This document shows positions 1 through 11,337 of a stretch of DNA of 64,000 nucleotides, piece by piece; the stretch's first letter is position 1, and each line of letters begins with the position of its first letter. The DNA is from a virus (taxonomy: Duplodnaviria; Caudoviricetes). The notes beneath the pieces are model-generated. The model had not been told where the DNA came from, searched no databases, and saw only the letters and a list, made by a program, of their open reading frames with translations. The translations under genes and the position numbers were made by a program. The DNA lies in the IMG/VR virus record IMGVR_UViG_3300042975_000096; one strand, given 5' to 3'.

Positions 1-1504
1 CAAAAGATTTAACAATTTTAGTTCTACGTTTATCACCAAATTTGTTTTTTAATTCTTCTAATTGAGAAATTATTTCTTTATCGATTAGAATTTCGTCTGC
101 CAATTTAGCTTTACAATCATCAATAATTGCATTATATTCTTTGATTGTATCAAATATTTTATCTCTATCCAATTTAACCAAAGTACGAACTTTTTTATCT
201 AAGATAAAATTAGCCTGTTCTTCATTTAATTTATATTTTTCCATAAGGGATTGTTTTGCTTGAACATCAGTTTCACTATCGATAATGATATTTACTGCAT
301 TTTTAATATCATCAATAACTTTAGTCAATCCTAATTGCTGATTCAATTTATTATTGGTTACATCTAAAGTATATTCTGTACGTCGTTTAATAACATCTCT
401 ACGATGATTAATATAAATATCCATATAATCATCTAATGTTACCAACTTTAATGTTTTATCAACCACTCCACGAATAATGTATGATACCTTTTTCTGCAAT
501 TGAGTTTTTGCATACAAATCTTTAACTAGCAATGGAATATTTGCTGTTTTTTGACACTCTACAACAACTCTTATATCCATGCCTTTTGATTCATCACGAA
601 CACATACAACTCTCGGTAACGCTTTTGTTACAATCAATTCATGAATCTTCTCTAGCAAAGTTGGTTTTTTACTTTCAGGTGGCAAGTCAATAAATACAAT
701 CTGGGGATTTCCATTTTCTTCATTTTGCTCAATAACATAATTTGCTCTGAATTCCAAATGTGCCTGACCTGTTGTATATAGCTCATCAATATTTTTATTC
801 AGCATAGAAGAGCCATATGGCAAATCCGGTCCCTTTATGTATTTCATTAAATCTTTTACAGTAAAATCTTTATGCTGAATGGCATAAATAATTCCATCGC
901 AAACTTCTTTCAAATTGTGAGAAGGAACATTGGTTGTATATCCTACTGCAATTCCTGAAGCTCCGTTTAATAAAAAATTTGGAAATAATGCAGGTAATAT
1001 TTTAGGTTCTGTTGCAGTTTCAGAGTAATTTGGTTGGAATTCTACGCTATGCTTGTTCATAACGTCCTCTAGAATCTCGTAAGAGGCTTTTGCAAGTCTA
1101 CCCTCTGTATATCTATCTGCTGCTTCACCATCACCGTCTAACGAGCCGTTATTGCCGTGAAAATCGATTAATGGATAACGATATGTCCATGGTTGCGACA
1201 TGTTTGCAATTGTTCCATAACATGAACCATGCGGATGATAATTACCACTTACCGCACCTGCAATTTTTGCACATTTCACATATGGTTTTGTTACCTCAAA
1301 TCCAGATTCTTTACAACAATATAGAATTCTTCTTTGTACAGGTTTCATACCATCTCGCACATCAGGCAATGCTCTATCAATAATAGTCATTACTGAATAT
1401 GATAACATAGATAACTCAATTTCATCTTTTAAGTTTCCGTCCACTATGTTTTCATTTGCAATAATTGAATCTATGCTTTCTTTGGTATTCTTCTTTTTAG
1501 CCAA
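1..1504 (-). CDS. gyrA: DNA gyrase/topoisomerase IIA subunit A (3' end runs off the window)
   Basis: Manual translation from TTG at 1504 (RBS GAGGGG upstream): RALPDVRDGMKPVQRRILY, YHPHG, DFHGNNGSLDGD, catalytic AADRYTEGRL, PNFLLNGASGIAVGYTTNVPSHN. Missing from the ORF track because its stop lies outside the window. Confidence 0.95.
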   Translation of the reverse strand, partial: MAKKKNTKESIDSIIANENIVDGNLKDEIELSMLSYSVMTIIDRALPDVRDGMKPVQRRILYCCKESGFEVTKPYVKCAKIAGAVSGNYHPHGSCYGTIANMSQPWTYRYPLIDFHGNNGSLDGDGEAADRYTEGRLAKASYEILEDVMNKHSVEFQPNYSETATEPKILPALFPNFLLNGASGIAVGYTTNVPSHNLKEVCDGIIYAIQHKDFTVKDLMKYIKGPDLPYGSSMLNKNIDELYTTGQAHLEFRANYVIEQNEENGNPQIVFIDLPPESKKPTLLEKIHELIVTKALPRVVCVRDESKGMDIRVVVECQKTANIPLLVKDLYAKTQLQKKVSYIIRGVVDKTLKLVTLDDYMDIYINHRRDVIKRRTEYTLDVTNNKLNQQLGLTKVIDDIKNAVNIIIDSETDVQAKQSLMEKYKLNEEQANFILDKKVRTLVKLDRDKIFDTIKEYNAIIDDCKAKLADEILIDKEIISQLEELKNKFGDKRRTKIVKSF

Positions 1505-1605
1505 ATCTAACCCCTCTTTCAAATATCGTAATTTTATTTTATTTATTTTTTCAAAAAATCATAAACACTGATATTTCTTATTAATATTTTTGCTGTTATT
1601 ATATT

Positions 1606-1638: not shown

Positions 1639-2172
1639 TTAACGCCATAGTTTTATTTTAAATAAAACATTATCAACATATTGCCCGTTCACTTTAAATG
1701 AATTCCATAATGTAATATTATCAAATGGTATTGCGATTCCATGAACATTAATATCTGGTATGTTTTGAGAAGCATCATATGCCATTGTTATATGTGGTGT
1801 ATATCCCTTAAACTTGCTTGGAGCTTTTTGATACCCAACACGATTAAAACATTCTTCCAATTGGTATCGTGCCTGATATAACTTGAAAGAACTATTTACA
1901 CCTATCCATAAAGCTCCTTGTGGGAATCTATTTACTCCACTAGCAAACACATATTGATTGAAACATTTATTTTGTTTTTCAAATAGTTTCATTCCCTCAA
2001 CTACTTTTTCAAAATCCGTTTCATCTTCTCCTAGAAAATCAACCGTAACATGAAAATCATTAGGGTCTTCCCAATCACCTGTCATTTTATGTTTCAAAAT
2101 ATTCTGATAATACATTAATTGTTGTTTTACCATATTGTCAGATATATCCATTGAAAGCCATAGTTGTGCCAT
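1639..2172 (-). CDS. 2H phosphoesterase (2'-5' RNA ligase / ThpR-like cyclic phosphodiesterase family)
   Basis: Two HxT motifs (FHVTVDF, PHITMAY) with typical spacing; 177 aa. Confidence 0.85.
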   Translation of the reverse strand: MAQLWLSMDISDNMVKQQLMYYQNILKHKMTGDWEDPNDFHVTVDFLGEDETDFEKVVEGMKLFEKQNKCFNQYVFASGVNRFPQGALWIGVNSSFKLYQARYQLEECFNRVGYQKAPSKFKGYTPHITMAYDASQNIPDINVHGIAIPFDNITLWNSFKVNGQYVDNVLFKIKLWR

Positions 2173-2770: not shown

Positions 2771-4472
2771 TTAAAGATTATCAATATCTATTTTGTCAGA
2801 ATTTGATTCAATAAATTGTCTTCTCGGCAAAACATTCTTTCCCATCAGCACTTCGAATGTATCAGCCACTTCTTTTGCTTCATCTAAATTAATGCGTTTC
2901 AATGTTCTTGTTTTTGGGTCTAATGTTGTTTCGCCTAGCTGTTCAGGATTCATCTCCCCAAGCCCTTTAAACCGGTTCAGTGTATATTTATCTTTTGCAT
3001 GTTTTTGACGATATTCCCGAAGTTCTGAATCATCCAACAAATATACAGAAGAATTGTCTGATTTAATAATTCTATACAATGGTGGTTGTGCTGAATATAC
3101 ACGACCAGATTCAATTAATCCAGGCAAATAATAATAAAACAATGTTAAAATTAAGCTTCTGATATGATTTCCATCAACATCCGCATCGGCCATAATGATA
3201 ATTTTATCGTATCTTACATCGTCTACGCTAAATGTTTTGCCAACACCACCGCCAATAGAAGCAACAATGCTTTTTACTGTATCTGAATTTAAGATTTTAC
3301 CAATATCGGCTTTATTAACATTTAGAATCTTACCTCTTAATGGCAAAATAGATTGATATGTTCTATCTCTTCCTTCTTTTGCCGAACCTCCAGCGCTATC
3401 GCCTTCAGTTAAGAATAATTCTCGATAACCGTTTTTATTACTACATTCTGCCAATTTTCCTGGCAAAGCAACTTTAGAAGCTTTTTTTGTCTGTCTACTA
3501 ATGCTTCTAGCTTTTCTTGCTGCTTCTTCAGCTTCTTTTACTTTTGAAGCTCTATTAATAATAGAATCAAATACATCGTACAGTTTTTTATTTTTAATCT
3601 CTTTATCAAAAAAATCATGCATGATTTTTTCAACTGCTTCTTGTGCTTCTTTATTTCCTAATTTTGTTTTTGTCTGTCCTTCAAATTCCGCTTCTGGAAT
3701 TTTAATGGATATAGTGCAATACATACCATCCATAAGATATTTCATTTCAATAGGGTCTTTAATTAATTTTTTATCAATTCCATATTGATTAATAATATCC
3801 TTATAAGCGTTTTTAAATCCTTGTAAATGAAAACCGCCCTCATATGTATTAACATTATTTGCAAATGATTTTATTTTTGTATTTGGTTCAGCTTCATCGT
3901 CATGAATAAATGCAATATCACATAAAATCAATTGACCATTAGGCAATTCATATTGTCCAAAAAATGAAAAAGGATTATCATATAACTTTATTTTTCCTTC
4001 AATCATTTTCATTGTATATCCAGTAATACCATCTTCAAAATGATAAACTGTATCTGTTTTATCCACATCGTTAATATATCTGATTTTAATTCCAGGATTT
4101 AATGATGCCAATTCTTTCAATCTGTTATTTACATGTTCACTAGGATTTAATGTGATTTTGAAAATAGATTTATCAGGATGGTATTTTATTTCCGTTCCCG
4201 TTTCTGTTGTTTTGCCAATTTGTTCAACATCAGAGGTAGGAACACCCCTAGAAAATGTTTGTTTATAAATTGCCCCATTACGTTTAACAACAACCTCAAA
4301 ATTATCCGCTAGTGCATTTACGCAAGTAACACCAACGCCGTGCAATCCACTCGAACAATTGCCAACAACAATATTATTAATGTTATACGTATGTGTATTT
4401 TTTACATTTAAATCATAGATTTTACCTTTGTATGCTTCTTTATTTATTTCTTTTACTCGGAATAAATTTCAA
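2771..4472 (-). CDS. gyrB: Split-intein C-fragment fused to the C-terminal part of DNA gyrase/topoisomerase IIA subunit B (apparent +1 frameshift near 4458)
   Basis: SGLHGVGVTCVNAL, EFEGQTKTKLGN, TOPRIM motifs TEGDSAGGS, PLRGKILN, MADADVDG, RFKGLGEM. The frame extends upstream of the tracked ORF through RVKEINKEAYKGKIYDLNVKNTHTYNINNIVVGN. The RBS (AGGGGG, 4481-4486) and TTG (4472) are one base out of frame. Confidence 0.9.
4358..4472 (-). other. Split intein C-terminal half (IntC, ~38 aa)
   Basis: Block F/G motif IYDLNVKNTHTYNINNIVVGN ending in Asn, followed by Cys+1 of the extein (CSSGLHGVG). Confidence 0.88.
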
Positions 4473-4498
4473 AATTAACGCCCCCTATTTACAAAATA

Positions 4499-5354
4499 TT
4501 ATATGGAATTACAAATTCTTTTTGCAATTTCTCTCATCGCTGGTTGAAAAACAGTTCTTCCTGCACGTTCATATAGTTTAGAATCAGATAAACCACAAGA
4601 TAAAATTTTGTCAATACTTTCATCTTCAATTCCTTGCAATCTAAAACATTCTCTAGGCGTTAATTTTCTCAATCTATTATTGTCAATAATCAGTGGCACG
4701 TTATTTCCACCGAGTACCCATAGAAGCTGTCAATGTTGGACAATATCCTTGAAATCTTCTAAAATTTCCACGTCTGTATTGATAGATACATATTTCGCTA
4801 TCATTTTTTGATATACTTTCGAGGATAGGAAATATTTTTCCGGTACGTTGTCCTCTAATATGTCCGACAATGAACACCCTTTCTCTGAGGACGGGATACC
4901 CAAAATTTTTTGCGTTGACACATTGCCATTCAACATCATACCCCAATTTGTCCAACTCCCAGAGTATTCGTTTAAAGCTTTCTCCGTTATCATGATTCAA
5001 TAACCCCTTTACATTTTCAAACCAAAACATCTTTGGCTTTTTTATTTTCAAAATCTTTGCCAATTCAAAAAACATTTGTCCTCTAGGGTCTTTTGAGGCA
5101 AATCCTTCTCTATCTCCTGCAATTGAAAACTTTGCACATGGAAAACCACCACATAACAAATCAATATCAGGAAGTGTATTGTAATCATAAGTTCGAATAT
5201 CTTTATCGTATGGCATTTCATTAAACAATGATTGATATATTGTCTGTGATGCAATTTCATAATCTGAACTGAATACACATTTCGTATCAAACTTTTCTAA
5301 TGCCAATCTAAATCCACCTATGCCACAAAACATATCTGCATATTTGATAGTCAT
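4499..5354 (-). CDS. C5-cytosine DNA methyltransferase-fold protein 1 (apparent +1 frameshift at ~4712; atypical motif X)
   Basis: Motifs I DMFCGIGG, IV GFPC, VI ENVKG, VIII RERVF. TLTASMGT joins GGNNVPLII-RKLTPRECFRLQG (IX) and LYERAGRTV (X) if one base is removed. Confidence 0.85.
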
Positions 5355-5406
5355 TATTATTTCCTCTTCTCATAAAATATTTACTATACTTTTTAGTATA
5401 TTAAAA

Positions 5407-5691
5407 TCATTTTGATGTATATTTTTTTGGTTTTCCATTTTCATCCAACACATTACCGCCAATAACATATGAGATTGAATATTTAGCATGTACTGCTGTG
5501 ACATAGTATTCATATTTCGTATTTTTATCAGCAACAATATAATAATCCTCTCCAAATTGTTCTACAAATATAAACTGTGATGAGTCATTACAAAAATCTT
5601 CACCAGTTTTTCTATTAACACTAGCGTTCCCTGTACATCCTGCCAATACAAGCGTACACACAATTAATACGATTGAAATGTATTTTTTCAT
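5407..5691 (-). CDS. Putative lipoprotein
   Basis: MKK + hydrophobic stretch + lipobox LAGC; RBS GAGGG. Confidence 0.75.
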   Translation of the reverse strand: MKKYISIVLIVCTLVLAGCTGNASVNRKTGEDFCNDSSQFIFVEQFGEDYYIVADKNTKYEYYVTAVHAKYSISYVIGGNVLDENGKPKKYTSK

Positions 5692-5703
5692 GATAACCCT
5701 CTT

Positions 5704-6627
5704 TTACAAATATTTTTCTACTTGTTTTGCCAAATTCTCTGCAAATAATGATGGTATTCCACTACAACGTTCATATTGTTTTGCTAATGGAATGTTTACA
5801 TCAAAGCAAAACGTATCAGGAACGCTCTGTATTCGTAAACATTCACGTACTGTAAATCTTCTAGGAGGATTTATTTGCGTTTTTCTTATATCGTAATTTG
5901 CTGGTGATGGGTATAACGGCAACTGTCTTGCACAAGAAACGATAGTAAATGATTGTTCATTCCATTGCCGTTGCCTGTTCCTAGAAATATATCTAGAAGA
6001 AAATCCACCATCATAATACTCATAATGATTAAAAGACTCATATTTTTTAGCAGGAATAGGTAAATCATGTATTGCATCATAAAGAGTTTTCTTTGGTAAT
6101 GTGTTAGGAAACTCAAAATTATCATTATGAATTCCAACAACAAAAACTCTTTTCCTGTCTTGTGGAATTCCATAATCAGATAGATTCATTAACTTGAATT
6201 TTACAATATATCCCATATTTTCAAATGATTGAATTAAAAAATTAAAAAACGCGCAATGTTTTTTACTAACCAATCCTGCAACATTTTCAATAACAAATGC
6301 TTTTGGTCTTTTATCATTAACAATACGCATAAACTGCAAACTTAAATCGCCATTCTTTTCATCATGTACTCCTTTTCCGCTTCCTGCAACACTAAATGGC
6401 TTACAAGGGAAACCTCCAATGATTACATCCGAATTAGGAATATCTGATGATTTTAACTTTCTTATATCTTTACACACAGCATTGAATTTAATATTTTTAA
6501 TATAAGTATCAACCGCATATTGATTATTATCAACTGCATAATTTATATCAAAAACATTTTTAAATCCCATTGCCCCTATACCTGCACCACAAAACAAATC
6601 TGTTACAGTATACATATTCTTAATCAT
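5704..6627 (-). CDS. C5-cytosine DNA methyltransferase-fold protein 2 (atypical motif X)
   Basis: DLFCGAG, GFPCKPFS, ENVAG, QDRKRVF, RRFTVRECLRIQSVPD. Motif X reads QYERCSGIP instead of QYxQIGNAVP. Confidence 0.9.
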   Translation of the reverse strand: MIKNMYTVTDLFCGAGIGAMGFKNVFDINYAVDNNQYAVDTYIKNIKFNAVCKDIRKLKSSDIPNSDVIIGGFPCKPFSVAGSGKGVHDEKNGDLSLQFMRIVNDKRPKAFVIENVAGLVSKKHCAFFNFLIQSFENMGYIVKFKLMNLSDYGIPQDRKRVFVVGIHNDNFEFPNTLPKKTLYDAIHDLPIPAKKYESFNHYEYYDGGFSSRYISRNRQRQWNEQSFTIVSCARQLPLYPSPANYDIRKTQINPPRRFTVRECLRIQSVPDTFCFDVNIPLAKQYERCSGIPSLFAENLAKQVEKYL

Positions 6628-7325
6628 CCTTTTATCGCAATATATCCTTCAAAATTCAACATACGCCAAAAAGTTTCAACCTTTGCAAACCCTGCTTGAT
6701 GCAATAATTCTTTATTCCATTCTGAAGTAACTGGAACCAAAACTCCAGCCAATGATTTTCTTTTTTCTTCAATTTGCTCTTTTGAATATCCATTTTCATT
6801 TTTTAATTGATAATAGCTATCTACTAACAAATTATTAATTGTATTACATGAACCTAAAACCTTTTCAACAAAAATAAAAATCCCATTTTTATTTAAAGAA
6901 TCATAAATGTTTTGTAAAATTTGCTGTCTATTTTCAATTGGTGTGAATTGAATTGTTAGCACAGACATAATAATATCAAAATTATTTGTACCAAAATCTT
7001 CTTCTAAAATGTCTCGATTCATGATTTTAATGTTATCTGCGTGTTCAAATCTTTTTTTTGCTTTTTCAATCATCGGTTCAGAAACATCAATTCCTAAACA
7101 TTGGTATTTATTGTTATTTTCAAATGGGATTAAGTTTAATCCATTTGAACATCCCAAATCCAAAACGTTTCCGCTTTTATGTTTACATAGCATTTGTATT
7201 GTTTTTCGCATAACATCATATTGTGGAATTGAACGTTGTAACATATCCTCAAAACAATCTGCTACTTGTTCGTCAAATTCCCACTTGCCATTAACGTGGA
7301 TTTTATCTTTTGCCATATTAATCAC
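6624..7325 (-). CDS. cmoA: CmoA-like carboxy-S-adenosylmethionine synthase (class I SAM-dependent fold)
   Basis: WEFDEQVADCFEDMLQRSIPQY, DLGCSNG, LTIQF and KRKSLAGVL...AGF...FWRMLNFEGYIAIK parallel E. coli CmoA ([41 protein letters not shown] including the Arg199 equivalent). Confidence 0.82.
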   Translation of the reverse strand: MINMAKDKIHVNGKWEFDEQVADCFEDMLQRSIPQYDVMRKTIQMLCKHKSGNVLDLGCSNGLNLIPFENNNKYQCLGIDVSEPMIEKAKKRFEHADNIKIMNRDILEEDFGTNNFDIIMSVLTIQFTPIENRQQILQNIYDSLNKNGIFIFVEKVLGSCNTINNLLVDSYYQLKNENGYSKEQIEEKRKSLAGVLVPVTSEWNKELLHQAGFAKVETFWRMLNFEGYIAIKG

Positions 7326-7693
7326 TAGCCTTTATATACATATAAAAATCTTCATCAACATTTTTAAAAAATAAATAACATTTCCTTTTATCGTTGAACG
7401 TATAATTAAAACTATCTTCTGTATATGGAGCATTAATGTTATTCGTCATCTTGCCAATTTTATCAAAGTTTTTTTCTACAAGAAAATTTTTAATATCATA
7501 ATCCATTGGCAAAAACAATGATAGATATTTCCCTTTTGAACATTTTCCAACGTCTGTATGTATTTCAAACTTTGTGCCCAACCATACTTTCATCACCATA
7601 TCTTACAATTTCTTCATCTTTAGATATAGCCAATTTATATACTGTATATCCATCGCCTTTTGTTGCTTGTTCAAATCCTTGTGATATTTTCAT
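7318..7693 (-). CDS. Hypothetical protein (either a 42-aa ORF plus a 93-aa ORF, or one ~124-aa ORF with a +1 frameshift near 7577)
   Basis: Strong RBS GAGGTG before ATG 7693 gives MKISQGFEQATKGDG..., which stops at ~7565; the tracked ORF 7318-7599 continues in the +1 frame. Confidence 0.5.
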
Positions 7694-7702
7694 AAATCCA
7701 CC

Positions 7703-8446
7703 TCAAAATTTCACTTTATCATAAATAGGAATTTCTTTTTTCAATTGTTCTACATCATCCGTATCTTCTAGTTCAATTAAAAAATCTTCTTTTTTGACAT
7801 TCTCTATTTTTTCCCAATATAATGTATCATTACGTTTAATTAATACATAGTGACCATTTATAGCAGACAGCTTTTTGTCATTTTTCAAAACAATTGAGTT
7901 AACATCACCGTCATAATCATATGAATATACCTCTGAAACTTCGTCAGATTCGTTGTAACAGTTTTTTACTCTGCACCCTACTACTACTTCACTTATTTTT
8001 TTAACGCCCTTAGAAGTGATTACAGGGCTGTTCTCGACGAAACACTTATAACCACTATCACCACCAAATTTACCACCGGCATGAAGTCTAGTAAGAATAC
8101 CTGTTAATGTATCTTGTGGTGAACCATCTTTGTTTTTCCATTCAGGATGTGTTCCAACAGGAATTCCGCGACCTTCATCTGTACTCGTTACCGTTCCATC
8201 TTTGTGAACATGAATGGTAATATTTTCGCCAAATCCTGCCGTATATTCGTCGATGGAATTATCAATAACTTCATAAACTAATTGGTCTATGCCTGATTGT
8301 GAGGTACTACCGATATACATACCTGGACGTTTTCTAACGGCTTCCAACCCATTCAATGATTTAATCTGGTTTACATCATAATCATTTTTCACTTTTAGCA
8401 TTTCTTGTTCTTTAGTCATTTTAATTTTATCCCCTCTCATCGTCAT
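7703..8446 (-). CDS. gyrB: N-terminal GHKL ATPase part of gyrase subunit B fused to split-intein N-fragment (likely start ATG 8419)
   Basis: LEAVRKRPGMYIGS, EVIDNSIDE, DEGRGIP, LHAGGKFG..YK, then an abrupt switch to intein block A. Confidence 0.92.
   Translation of the reverse strand: MTMRGDKIKMTKEQEMLKVKNDYDVNQIKSLNGLEAVRKRPGMYIGSTSQSGIDQLVYEVIDNSIDEYTAGFGENITIHVHKDGTVTSTDEGRGIPVGTHPEWKNKDGSPQDTLTGILTRLHAGGKFGGDSGYKCFVENSPVITSKGVKKISEVVVGCRVKNCYNESDEVSEVYSYDYDGDVNSIVLKNDKKLSAINGHYVLIKRNDTLYWEKIENVKKEDFLIELEDTDDVEQLKKEIPIYDKVKF
7706..8044 (-). other. Split intein N-terminal half (IntN, 113 aa)
   Basis: Starts with Cys1 block A CFVENSPVITSKGVKKISEV; block B-like AINGHYVLI; WEKIENVKKEDFLI; acidic tail; then a stop codon. 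Confidence 0.88.
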
Positions 8447-8471
8447 ATATATTCATTGTATTTATTTTATT

Positions 8472-8511
8472 AAAAAAAATAAAGGATGAAAATTATTCAC
8501 CCTTTATTTTT
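8472..8511 (-). terminator. Probable intrinsic terminator after the MFS gene
   Basis: AAATAAAGGaTGAA...TTCAcCCTTTATTT inverted repeat with A-tract. Confidence 0.55.
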
Positions 8512-8514
8512 CAA

Positions 8515-9745
8515 TTACTTATCTTCTTCTGTTTCGTATAACTGTTGACCTTTATCCTTAAGTACCCATGCAATAATTAAATTAAATACAAATATTGCAG
8601 AAAATAGATACATAATTAATTGATAAGAACCAAACACTGATTTTGTAAACGTAAGCAAAAGTGGACCAGCAATTCCTGCAAATCCCCAAGCTGTTAAAAT
8701 TCTACCATGAATTGTTGACAAATGTCGCGTTCCAAAAATATCACTAAGATATGCTGGCATACATGAAAATCCACCACCATAGCATGTAATAATCATCAAA
8801 ACAAACAATTCAAACAAAAACTCGTTCGTTGTCGTTGCCAACAAGAAGAACATTACAATTTCAAGTACAAAGAATGTAACATATGTATATCCACGACCAA
8901 TATAATCAGAAATTGTAGCCCAAACAATACGACCGAAGACCATTAAGCAATCCGACAATACCAACTAAAGCCGCTGCTCTTGTTGGCGAAAAACCAACAA
9001 CCTCTTGTGCCATAGGTGAAACAACAGATAACAATGCAATACCACAAGAAATATTTATGAAAAAAATAATCCACAACGCTTTAAACTGCCATGTACTATA
9101 AACTTCTTTTGGTGGAATATCCTCTCCAATAAAATCTTCTGCTTCATTGTATCCTTTTGGTGGAGCTAAATATAATGATGACAATGCCATAATAATCATG
9201 TAGGCAAATCCCAAAATCAAGAAATTGCTAACCAATCCATATGTAGAAGATAAAAACTGCATTAAAGGAGCAGCAATCAATGCAGCAAATCCAAATGACA
9301 TGATTGAAATTCCTGTTGCAAAACCTCTATTTTCAGGAAAATATTTAACCAGTGTAGATACAGGAGTTATATAGCCCAATCCCAATCCACAACCGCCAAT
9401 AACACCATAGAACAAATACAACAAAAATAAACTATGTAGAGATAATGCCAATGAAGTTCCAAACAATCCCAACCCAAAAAAGGCAGAAGCCAATAAACCA
9501 ACTTTTTTTGCACCCCACTTATCAACTAGATTCCCAAAAAATCCTGCTGATAATCCAAGGAATAAAATTGCCAATGAAAATGCAAATGTTGTTTGTGATA
9601 AAGACCATCCATTCTCAGCAATAATTGGATTTACCAAAACGCTCCATGCATATACGCTACCAATCGAAATATGGATTCCACCAGCTGCTAATGCAATCAA
9701 CCATCGATTCCTTTGTAGTTTTGAAAATACTTTTTTCATAACCAT
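8515..9745 (-). CDS. MFS transporter, oxalate/formate antiporter (OFA)-like family (apparent +1 frameshift at ~8935)
   Basis: NRWLIALAAGGIHISIGSVYAWSV, GLGLGYITPVSTLVKYFPENRGFATG, GRIVWATISDYIGR, YGGGFSCMPAYLSDIFG. The two tracked ORFs join as NGLGRIVW if one C is removed. Confidence 0.88.
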
Positions 9746-10681: not shown

Positions 10682-10783
10682 GTAAAATCACCTATTATCT
10701 ATTTTTTTAATAATGTCCTTCTTTAACTAAGAAATTCTCATTTCTATGAAATTAATACATCTTGTTTACATAAAATATTTGTC

Positions 10784-11137
10784 GTTTTTATTCACGCACC
10801 CATACGGGTGCGACCATTTGAACGCTTCTGCTAGTTTTGCATCTTTTTCATTTCGATTCACGCACCTCTGCGAGGTGCGACTTCAAGTTCAGAAAAACTA
10901 TATTTACTTGTATATTTCAATTCACGCACCTCTGCGAGGTGCGACTTGTAGGTGGTACAACCGCATCGTGCATTTCAATTCACGCACCTCTGCGAGGTGC
11001 GACATACTTTTTTAAGTTTCTTTATTTCATTCTTTATTATTTCAATTCACGCACCTCTGCGAGGTGCGACACATCAGAGCTGAAAACTGTTGATGATAAG
11101 CAGTTATTTCAATTCACGCACCTCTGCGAGGTGCGAC
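10784..11137 (-). CRISPR. CRISPR array 2, type I-C-like, 6 repeats and 5 spacers, no adjacent cas genes
   Basis: 32-nt repeat (transcribed GTCGCACCTCGCAGAGGTGCGTGAATTGAAAT) at 10850 (one mismatch), 10914, 10972, 11039 and 11106, plus a degenerate terminal repeat at 10784-10814; spacers 35, 32, 26, 35 and 35 nt. Confidence 0.96.
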
Positions 11138-11337
11138 AGCACACATGCCAAAGCCTTGCTATGCAAGGGCTGAAATGGCACTTTGTGCGAACCCCTAACC
11201 ATTTTACAAAATTCATTGACATTTCCCCATGAAAATAAGCATGAACCCTGTAAAACAAAGGGGTGCGAAGCACCTAGTGTTTTTCTGTTCACTTATGCTT
11301 CGCACTTATTATAACATTTAATTTATTATTTTGTCAA
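11138..11337 (-). promoter_or_regulatory. CRISPR leader copy 2 with sigma70/sigmaA promoter
   Basis: TTGACA (11337-11332), 18 nt, TGnTATAAT (11313-11308); ~200-nt near-duplicate of 2551-2751. Confidence 0.88.

Follow-up and report, generated by a model that had tools for sequence, protein, structure and literature searches.

A 64,000-nucleotide (nt) stretch of viral DNA (Duplodnaviria; Caudoviricetes; IMG/VR record IMGVR_UViG_3300042975_000096), referred to here as the window, contains a gyrB-like gene in two separate pieces. This gene for the B subunit of a phage type IIA topoisomerase is very probably broken inside its ATP lid by a naturally split intein of class 1 type, and the subunit would be rebuilt by protein trans-splicing. 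A sequence-only reading of the stretch had described a first gene that couples the N part of GyrB to a 113-amino-acid (aa) N-terminal intein half (IntN) with Cys1 and an acidic tail, and a second gene about 3.2 kb downstream that opens with a C-terminal half (IntC) of 38 aa, ending in VVGN and followed by CSSGLHGVG. Both genes are present, the first at 7703–8419 on the minus strand. The sequence shows a separate G-rich ribosome-binding site (RBS) and start codon for each gene; the splicing chemistry is what we infer. The parts of the two genes are as follows.

8431..8436, minus strand: RBS GAGGGG of the N-half gene, read from the sequence, 11 nt upstream of ATG 8419
8045..8419, minus strand: N-extein, GyrB-like residues 1–125, GHKL ATPase to the ATP-lid YK (Pfam HATPase_c; aligns with phage G gp252 1–124)
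7703..8044, minus strand: IntN, 113 aa (Cys1, block B AINGHY, acidic ELEDTDD tail, final KVKF), with stop codon; PF14890 positions 22–106
4481..4486, minus strand: RBS AGGGGG of the C-half gene, read from the sequence, 8 nt upstream of TTG 4472
4358..4472, minus strand: IntC, 38 aa, true sequence MKFIPVKEINKEAYKGKIYDLNVKNTHTYNINNIVVGN, with one spurious base at 4458 in the record; PF14890 positions 122–155
2771..4357, minus strand: C-extein, Cys+1 and the remaining GyrB-like subunit, 528 aa, with stop codon (Pfam DNA_gyraseB, Toprim, DNA_gyraseB_C)

The open reading frame (ORF) of the N-half gene covers 7703–8446 on the minus strand. Its likely start is ATG 8419, in agreement with relatives, which begin at the same MTKEQ. 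The resulting precursor is 238 aa long and consists of GyrB residues 1–125 and the acidic IntN. The N-extein terminates in HAGGKFGGDSGYK (GDSGYK), with the last Lys at 8047–8045; IntN, whose first residue is Cys, is encoded by positions 8044–7706, and the stop codon occupies 7703–7705. The frame of the C-half gene is open from 4468 down to 2771 (565 codons) and reads KEAYKGKIYDLNVKNTHTYNINNIVVGN directly followed by CSSGLHGVG and then the complete C part of GyrB. Its precursor is 566 aa, comprising the basic IntC, which ends in VVGN, and GyrB 126–653. The C-extein holds the GLHGVG motif of the ATP lid, the transducer, the TOPRIM domain and the GyrB C-terminal domain, and is 51% identical to residues 128–653 of phage G gp252. 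IntC has its own RBS and start codon (ATG, GTG or TTG among relatives) in every lineage. A promoter-like site at 4527–4498 scores 10/12, and such sites are no commoner here than in shuffled sequence. Split inteins usually show charge complementarity between their halves, and here an acidic IntN is paired with a neutral-to-basic IntC: net charges in the window are −7 for IntN (family range −4 to −16) and +3 for IntC (family range 0 to +3).

By its domain set (HATPase_c in the first piece; DNA_gyraseB, Toprim and DNA_gyraseB_C in the second) and a nearby gene for an A subunit, the host protein is classified from sequence as the B (ATPase) subunit of a type IIA topoisomerase of the GyrB/ParE/phage gp39-like group. 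We use the name GyrB-like, as true gyrase status would require DNA supercoiling. Among isolated phages, its best match is the 'DNA topoisomerase II large subunit' of Bacillus phage G. That protein, gp252 (656 aa), is uninterrupted and provides a reference for the junction. It aligns through SAYK with the first piece and from SSAGLHGVG with the second, with no residue missing between them. Joining YK to CSSGLHGVG gives a residue-for-residue match to phage G YK-SSAGLHGVG, so that removal of the intein restores the host motif. Because gp252 aligns on both sides, the lid would be restored exactly, with Cys replacing the first Ser; the alignment agrees with the earlier proposal that splicing would leave the ATP lid complete. 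Some tblastn matches (phage G, BcepSauron, Rhizobium phages) seemed to enter IntN and were dismissed as alignment spill-over. The phage G and Rhizobium phage genes are uninterrupted, and the extra length of the BcepSauron protein sits in the TOPRIM region.

Profile searches identify both halves as intein. The Pfam profile Intein_splicing (PF14890) matches them at complementary positions, 22–106 for IntN (expectation value [E] 4e-5) and 122–155 for IntC (E 5e-5). The two scores, from complementary parts of the profile, sum roughly to ~47 bits (cut-off 35.8 bits). A profile made from 18 IntN sequences matches the PI-PkoII, gp41-1 and KlbA inteins in the PDB, and the IntC family profile matches the block F–G region of the KlbA, PI-PkoII and RecA inteins. 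In a representative protein library, 695 proteins match the IntN family profile. Its own family comes first (E < 1e-40), followed by diverse intein-bearing proteins, and 10 of the 10 matches that were checked contain Hint or intein domains; they include DNA polymerase III alpha, glycosyltransferases and epimerases. There was no GyrB among the top library matches that were checked. Matches of the IntN profile to polyubiquitin in the PDB were rejected, as they arise from the acidic tail being compared with repeated units, whose low scores (~2 bits per unit) are additive.

Structure prediction points the same way. An AlphaFold model of IntN by itself has a predicted local distance difference test (pLDDT) score of 78, and nearly all of its top 44 Foldseek matches in the PDB are HINT domains. 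They include hedgehog, gp41-1, DnaB and the IntN chain of Npu DnaE (4qfq_A, template-modelling scores 0.60/0.65), with E-values that are weak, at 9e-3 or worse. The model assigns the HINT fold to IntN. When IntN and IntC were modelled as a complex, the score was 0.91 in three runs and 0.00 for the best of three controls; the mark set for this score is reached by 58 of 80 solved complexes and by 2 of 110 mismatched pairs. The runs share at least 99% of their contacts, with a partner pLDDT of at least 91 (two-chain pLDDT 91–92). In the modelled complex, IntC residues 1–37 are all in contact, and block B packs on the IntC C terminus. Because split-intein complexes have been solved, we stress that this result speaks for resemblance and falls short of proof.

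The last 20 residues of IntN (94–113; window 7706–7765) follow the pattern DDVEELKKxIPxYxxxK[YF]. They lie outside the intein-profile match and are strongly conserved, with P106 and K112 invariant. This tail contacts IntC in the model, and its conservation exceeds that of a mere linker.

Residues expected of a splicing intein are invariant in the family. These are C1 and H65 in IntN (IntN numbering), D20, H27 and N38 in IntC (IntC numbering), and Cys+1, across 18–32 N-halves and 15–17 C-halves; H65 is the block-B residue, and D20 and H27 belong to block F. The usual block-B Thr (TxxH) and penultimate His are absent: the family has I-[ND]-G-H (INGH here) and ends in VGN (VAN in one relative). 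The sequence-only reading had singled out these residues as atypical. The part that stands is that both are family characters: the block-B Ile is invariant, as is the penultimate Gly apart from one Ala. The penultimate residue is less unusual than had been stated. Neither the TxxH Thr nor the penultimate His is universal among active inteins, and cyanobacterial DnaE split inteins lack the latter, Npu ending in ASN and Ssp in AAN.

We propose the following course of splicing. IntN and IntC would associate and fold into one HINT domain. Cys1 would undergo an N–S acyl shift, aided by the invariant block-B His, and the thioester would be attacked by Cys+1. The terminal Asn38 would then cyclise with help from the block-F Asp and His, a role we assign to this pair because there is no penultimate His. 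Finally, Lys125 and Cys would be joined by an S–N shift, yielding a 653-aa subunit in which the lid YK-CSSGLHGVG is restored and which would pair with the GyrA-like subunit encoded downstream. Without splicing, the break in the lid would be expected to leave the GHKL ATPase domain inactive.

The same design recurs in related phages. Approximately 32 clusters of stand-alone proteins of 229–245 aa share the GyrB-N plus IntN design (53–100% identity), and 15 protein clusters open with IntC, always 38 aa long, which leads directly into CS[SG]GLHGVG. The split layout is found in at least six diverged lineages, which differ in what lies between the halves. Because the two halves match complementary parts of PF14890 and the layout recurs in at least six diverged lineages, the arrangement is more than chance. 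In the comparison with the closest diverged relative (contig L003), the ratio of nonsynonymous to synonymous rates (dN/dS) is 0.10 for IntN, 0.03 for IntC and 0.05–0.06 for the exteins, with synonymous sites near saturation (dS ~1); these ratios indicate purifying selection on both intein halves. The lid intein is split in every lineage found. No contiguous, cis-splicing form was seen among the longer proteins searched with IntN, which is weak evidence for its absence. Of the contiguous, split and intein-less alleles for which the first reading proposed to survey related phages, the split form was seen across lineages and an intein-less allele in phage G. Taken as a whole, its case for a split intein has gained profile matches, a HINT-like model, a complex score, invariant residues, purifying selection and a conserved split form.

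It is conceivable that the intein halves are splice-dead and act as a mere tight non-covalent clamp, the enzyme being a complex of three chains. The replacement of TxxH by INGH and of the penultimate His by Gly would fit such a role, and the predicted interface is so large, with all of IntC 1–37 in contact, that association alone is plausible. A pure clamp would have no need of Cys1, the block-B His, the block-F Asp and His, the terminal Asn or Cys+1, yet these remain invariant down to ~40–50% identity. Furthermore, a 151-aa HINT domain within the ATP lid would probably hinder closure of the lid over ATP. We consider the clamp unlikely.

In the record, a single base puts TTG 4472 out of frame with IntC, and the sequence-only reading had flagged the frameshift near 4458 as one that, if real, would leave IntC-GyrB untranslated. 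The base is indeed in the record. Contigs from three independent DNA runs (three studies) do without it: they lack one base at each of 4458, 4712, 7576/7577 and 8935/8936, and one of them has only 3 substitutions relative to the window over 6.4 kb. A Joint Genome Institute (JGI) contig, L013, 99.66% identical to the window, likewise lacks the extra bases at 4458 and 4712, both of which fall within its span. Its product, P0123, is an in-frame protein of 566 aa that starts (M)KFIPVKEINKEAYKG. In L003, too, the IntC start is in frame. Each of the four extra bases in the record disrupts one gene: IntC-GyrB-C, a C5 methyltransferase, a 124-aa ORF and a major facilitator superfamily (MFS) transporter. 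JGI contig L008, which is 2% divergent, has three of the four, and a near-identical run has none. Three of the four fit one pattern, YTGG to YT[C]GG. Because the extra bases are shared against phylogeny and follow this pattern, we attribute them to systematic technical error and not to inheritance. The extra base at 4458 is, on this sequence comparison, a sequencing or assembly error of the record. Such errors possibly arise at a modified CCAR/YTGG motif, an idea that comes from the two C5 methyltransferases encoded by the phage. A programmed +1 frameshift or a non-canonical initiation codon for IntC had been entertained and was dropped, the extra base being absent in the three runs and L013. 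That four frameshifts in the record are technical and follow a pattern is relevant to anyone annotating this genome.

These data also bear on the suggestion that the locus is a decaying pseudogene, in which the frameshift is real, IntC-GyrB-C is untranslated and gyrase has to come from the host. Both the window and L008 (98% identical) have one base too many at the IntC start, and the C part of L008 carries additional breaks. The base sits differently in the two contigs, however (window CC[G]AG, L008 CCAG[G]), and, beyond its absence from the independent runs, L013 and P0123 and the distribution of the insertions against phylogeny, the 565-codon C frame is open and dN/dS is low. A pseudogene is therefore very improbable.

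Both halves belong to one locus and are co-oriented on the minus strand, where the N half precedes the C half by 3.2 kb. The space between them (4499–7693) contains five co-oriented genes that form a DNA-modification cassette, listed here from upstream to downstream.

7318..7693, minus strand: cargo gene 1, 124-aa ORF, with a spurious base at 7576 in the record; intact 124 aa in L003, L008, L009 and L012
6624..7325, minus strand: cargo gene 2, class I S-adenosylmethionine-dependent methyltransferase (Pfam Methyltransf_25/11/31)
5704..6627, minus strand: cargo gene 3, C5 cytosine DNA methyltransferase (Pfam PF00145, E 1e-66)
5407..5691, minus strand: cargo gene 4, 94-aa protein with a lipoprotein-like N terminus (phrog_8801, unknown function); absent from L003/L012
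4499..5354, minus strand: cargo gene 5, second C5 DNA methyltransferase, with a spurious base at 4712 in the record; PF00145 matches both fragments

The 124-aa ORF has no Pfam or PHROG match, and none of the five intervening ORFs in the window matches an endonuclease in Pfam or PHROG. The true product of cargo gene 5 is 284 aa; it is intact in L013 and absent from L003/L012. The five-gene version of the cassette occurs in the window, L008 and L013. L003 and L012 have a three-gene methyltransferase cassette that differs by 1167 bp, with neither the 94-aa ORF nor the second C5 methyltransferase. Only 12 nt separate the halves in L014, and 38 nt in L004/L005. Between the halves of L006/L007 and of L015 lie ORFs of 349 and 363 aa that match a PHROG homing-endonuclease family (E 6e-7) and are 35% identical to each other. 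The 3.2 kb in the window is cargo, at a place that in relatives is empty or holds a homing-endonuclease-like gene.

Joining of the two ORFs at the nucleic-acid level, by an intron, ribosomal bypass or an assembly chimera, is exceedingly improbable: the 3.2 kb of unrelated genes could in principle be a mobile element removed from RNA, but a stop codon ends IntN, IntC has translation signals of its own throughout, the two ORFs persist in relatives with only 12–38 nt between the halves, an Rfam scan of the whole window found no family at threshold (group I and group II introns included), and independent contigs from several studies cover the whole locus without joints.

Several points weigh against a trans-splicing intein at this locus. 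Protein splicing here is a prediction from sequence and structure models. Each half by itself falls under the PF14890 gathering score (35.8 bits) in the window, and the complex score may come in part from likeness to solved split-intein complexes. Ile stands where block B usually has Thr, and Gly (Ala in one relative) takes the place of the penultimate His; in other inteins, block-B or penultimate-residue changes can each slow individual steps. The evidence is drawn from the window, and a second, uninterrupted gyrB may be present elsewhere in the phage genome. Parts of both halves are covered by metatranscriptome contigs (X17), which do not show transcript ends and may stem from DNA carried over into the library.

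Relatives indicate that GyrB is an intein hot spot in this phage clade. In a sister lineage, L012 (5196–10836), and also in L003, GyrB is encoded by three genes with two split inteins. The lid site of L012 reads YK/C...VGN/C and its TOPRIM site EGDSAGG/C...VVHN/SAKEGRD, where the slashes mark the predicted splice junctions. The IntN halves of the two sites are 26% identical over 58 aa only, and the inteins are unrelated; as judged from sequence, they may be a natural orthogonal pair. The TOPRIM site of the window has no intein. In L004 (10753–15135), L014 (6724–9804) and P0136, the C part of GyrB contains another one or two inteins, contiguous and with HNH domains, giving products of 929–1460 aa. 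The GyrB C-terminal domain is a separate ORF of 60–72 aa in L006 (13056–13968), L007 (6476–7388) and L015 (9385–9829), where it follows a gap with a small ORF; no intein signal was seen there. A third break, an intron and an assembly problem are the candidate explanations for this separate ORF.

The setting is that of a phage. The window is AT-rich (GC ~0.31), with nearly every gene on the minus strand. Its proteins include tail sheath and baseplate (PHROG), and three ORFs are ~2000 aa each; we treat it as a piece of a large myovirus-like phage genome. The stretch is found in public runs from bioreactor sludge and wastewater (14 studies). A megablast search of the locus against isolated phages gave no match. 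A promoter and terminator scan of the window gave counts that were not above those of shuffled sequence, and transcription units are not assignable from it. The partner subunit is encoded downstream.

2..1522, minus strand: GyrA-like partner subunit, which runs off the window (Pfam DNA_topoisoIV, E 5e-115; 795–804 aa in relatives)

A gene similar to LigT and 2'-5' RNA ligases, with weak similarity to Acb1, lies between gyrB and gyrA (window 1639–2172), and its place is kept in all relatives examined. Directly upstream of gyrB-N is an MFS transporter gene (window 8515–9745), intact at 409 aa in L003, L009 and L012; in the window it is disrupted solely by the spurious base at 8935. A hairpin and T-run at ~8470–8505 closes this gene. 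A sequence of ~200 bp is present in two copies, at 2464–2765 and 11100–11314. Short direct repeats (10746–11232) adjoin the second copy and have the same reading in three frames. They resemble an array of clustered regularly interspaced short palindromic repeats, and no cas gene was seen in the portion of the window read.

The arrangement belongs to a known class. Fractured genes with split inteins in uncultured phages include gp41-1, gp41-8, NrdJ-1, IMPDH-1 and NrdA-2 (Dassa et al., 2009; PMC2677866). That paper covers helicase, ribonucleotide reductase, IMPDH and DnaE genes, and the words gyrase, topoisomerase and GyrB are absent from it. As in those cases, the gene of a phage replication-related enzyme is broken in place, the pieces are co-oriented, in the original order and with separate translation signals, and the upstream gene ends in IntN while the downstream gene starts with a short IntC. 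The free-standing endonuclease-like gene between the halves in L006/L007 and L015 also follows this pattern, and L004 and L014, with nothing between the halves, resemble gp41-7 of the same paper. The differences are the host protein (GyrB), the insertion site (the GHKL ATP lid) and the content of the gap, where the window has no homing endonuclease but 3.2 kb with five genes of other kinds.

The cyanobacterial Ssp and Npu DnaE split inteins (Wu et al., 1998, as cited in PMC6390638) offer a second comparison. The split is canonical in both systems, at the position of endonuclease insertion. IntN is of ~100–120 aa and IntC of ~36–38 aa, with Cys1, Cys+1, an acidic IntN and a basic IntC in both systems, and the predicted IntN fold has the Npu DnaE IntN (4qfq_A) as one of its best structural matches. 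Unlike in DnaE, the host protein is GyrB, a single locus contains both halves, which in DnaE are hundreds of kb apart, and block B has Ile in place of Thr; there is no significant sequence similarity beyond the intein blocks. GyrB itself is a recurrent intein host, with 33 cases in one survey (PMC4760082) and 61 archaeal cases in another (PMC9348778), in contiguous forms only. The contiguous Ssp GyrB intein has been artificially split for protein engineering (PMC3443213). The lid intein shares its host protein family with these bacterial and archaeal inteins, which splice in cis and whose split versions are man-made. The first reading, which knew of no split intein in GyrB, agrees with our search: no published natural split GyrB or topoisomerase intein was found in the full-text literature searched, a scope that most subscription papers fall outside. 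The split-gene arrangement was already known; this case adds a new host site, non-endonuclease cargo between the halves and a doubly split sister allele.

A wider interpretation is improbable as a whole. In it, the lid intein would be obligately split and would have become fixed throughout a clade of large phages of sludge and wastewater. The space separating its halves would be a tolerated landing site for mobile or accessory genes, namely endonucleases in some lineages and the DNA-modification cassette in the window, and L012-type sisters would assemble GyrB from three polypeptides by means of two unrelated natural split inteins. Trans-splicing, which the first reading raised as a possible post-translational control point, might then be more than a neutral scar: it could be a timing or redox checkpoint based on Cys1 and Cys+1, linking activation of the topoisomerase to expression of the embedded DNA-modification genes. 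A natural orthogonal intein pair would also be at hand.

The lid intein adds a well-populated family of natural split inteins with conventional geometry (113 + 38 aa, Cys1/Cys+1), at a host protein and site, the GyrB ATP lid, where the literature searched describes no natural case of a split intein. Protein-ligation tools are built from natural split inteins, and the diverged members of this family, together with the doubly split sister phage, are candidate orthogonal pairs. For the phages themselves, the family indicates that the gap between intein halves can absorb kilobases of unrelated cargo, and that an essential replication enzyme can remain split over long evolutionary distances.

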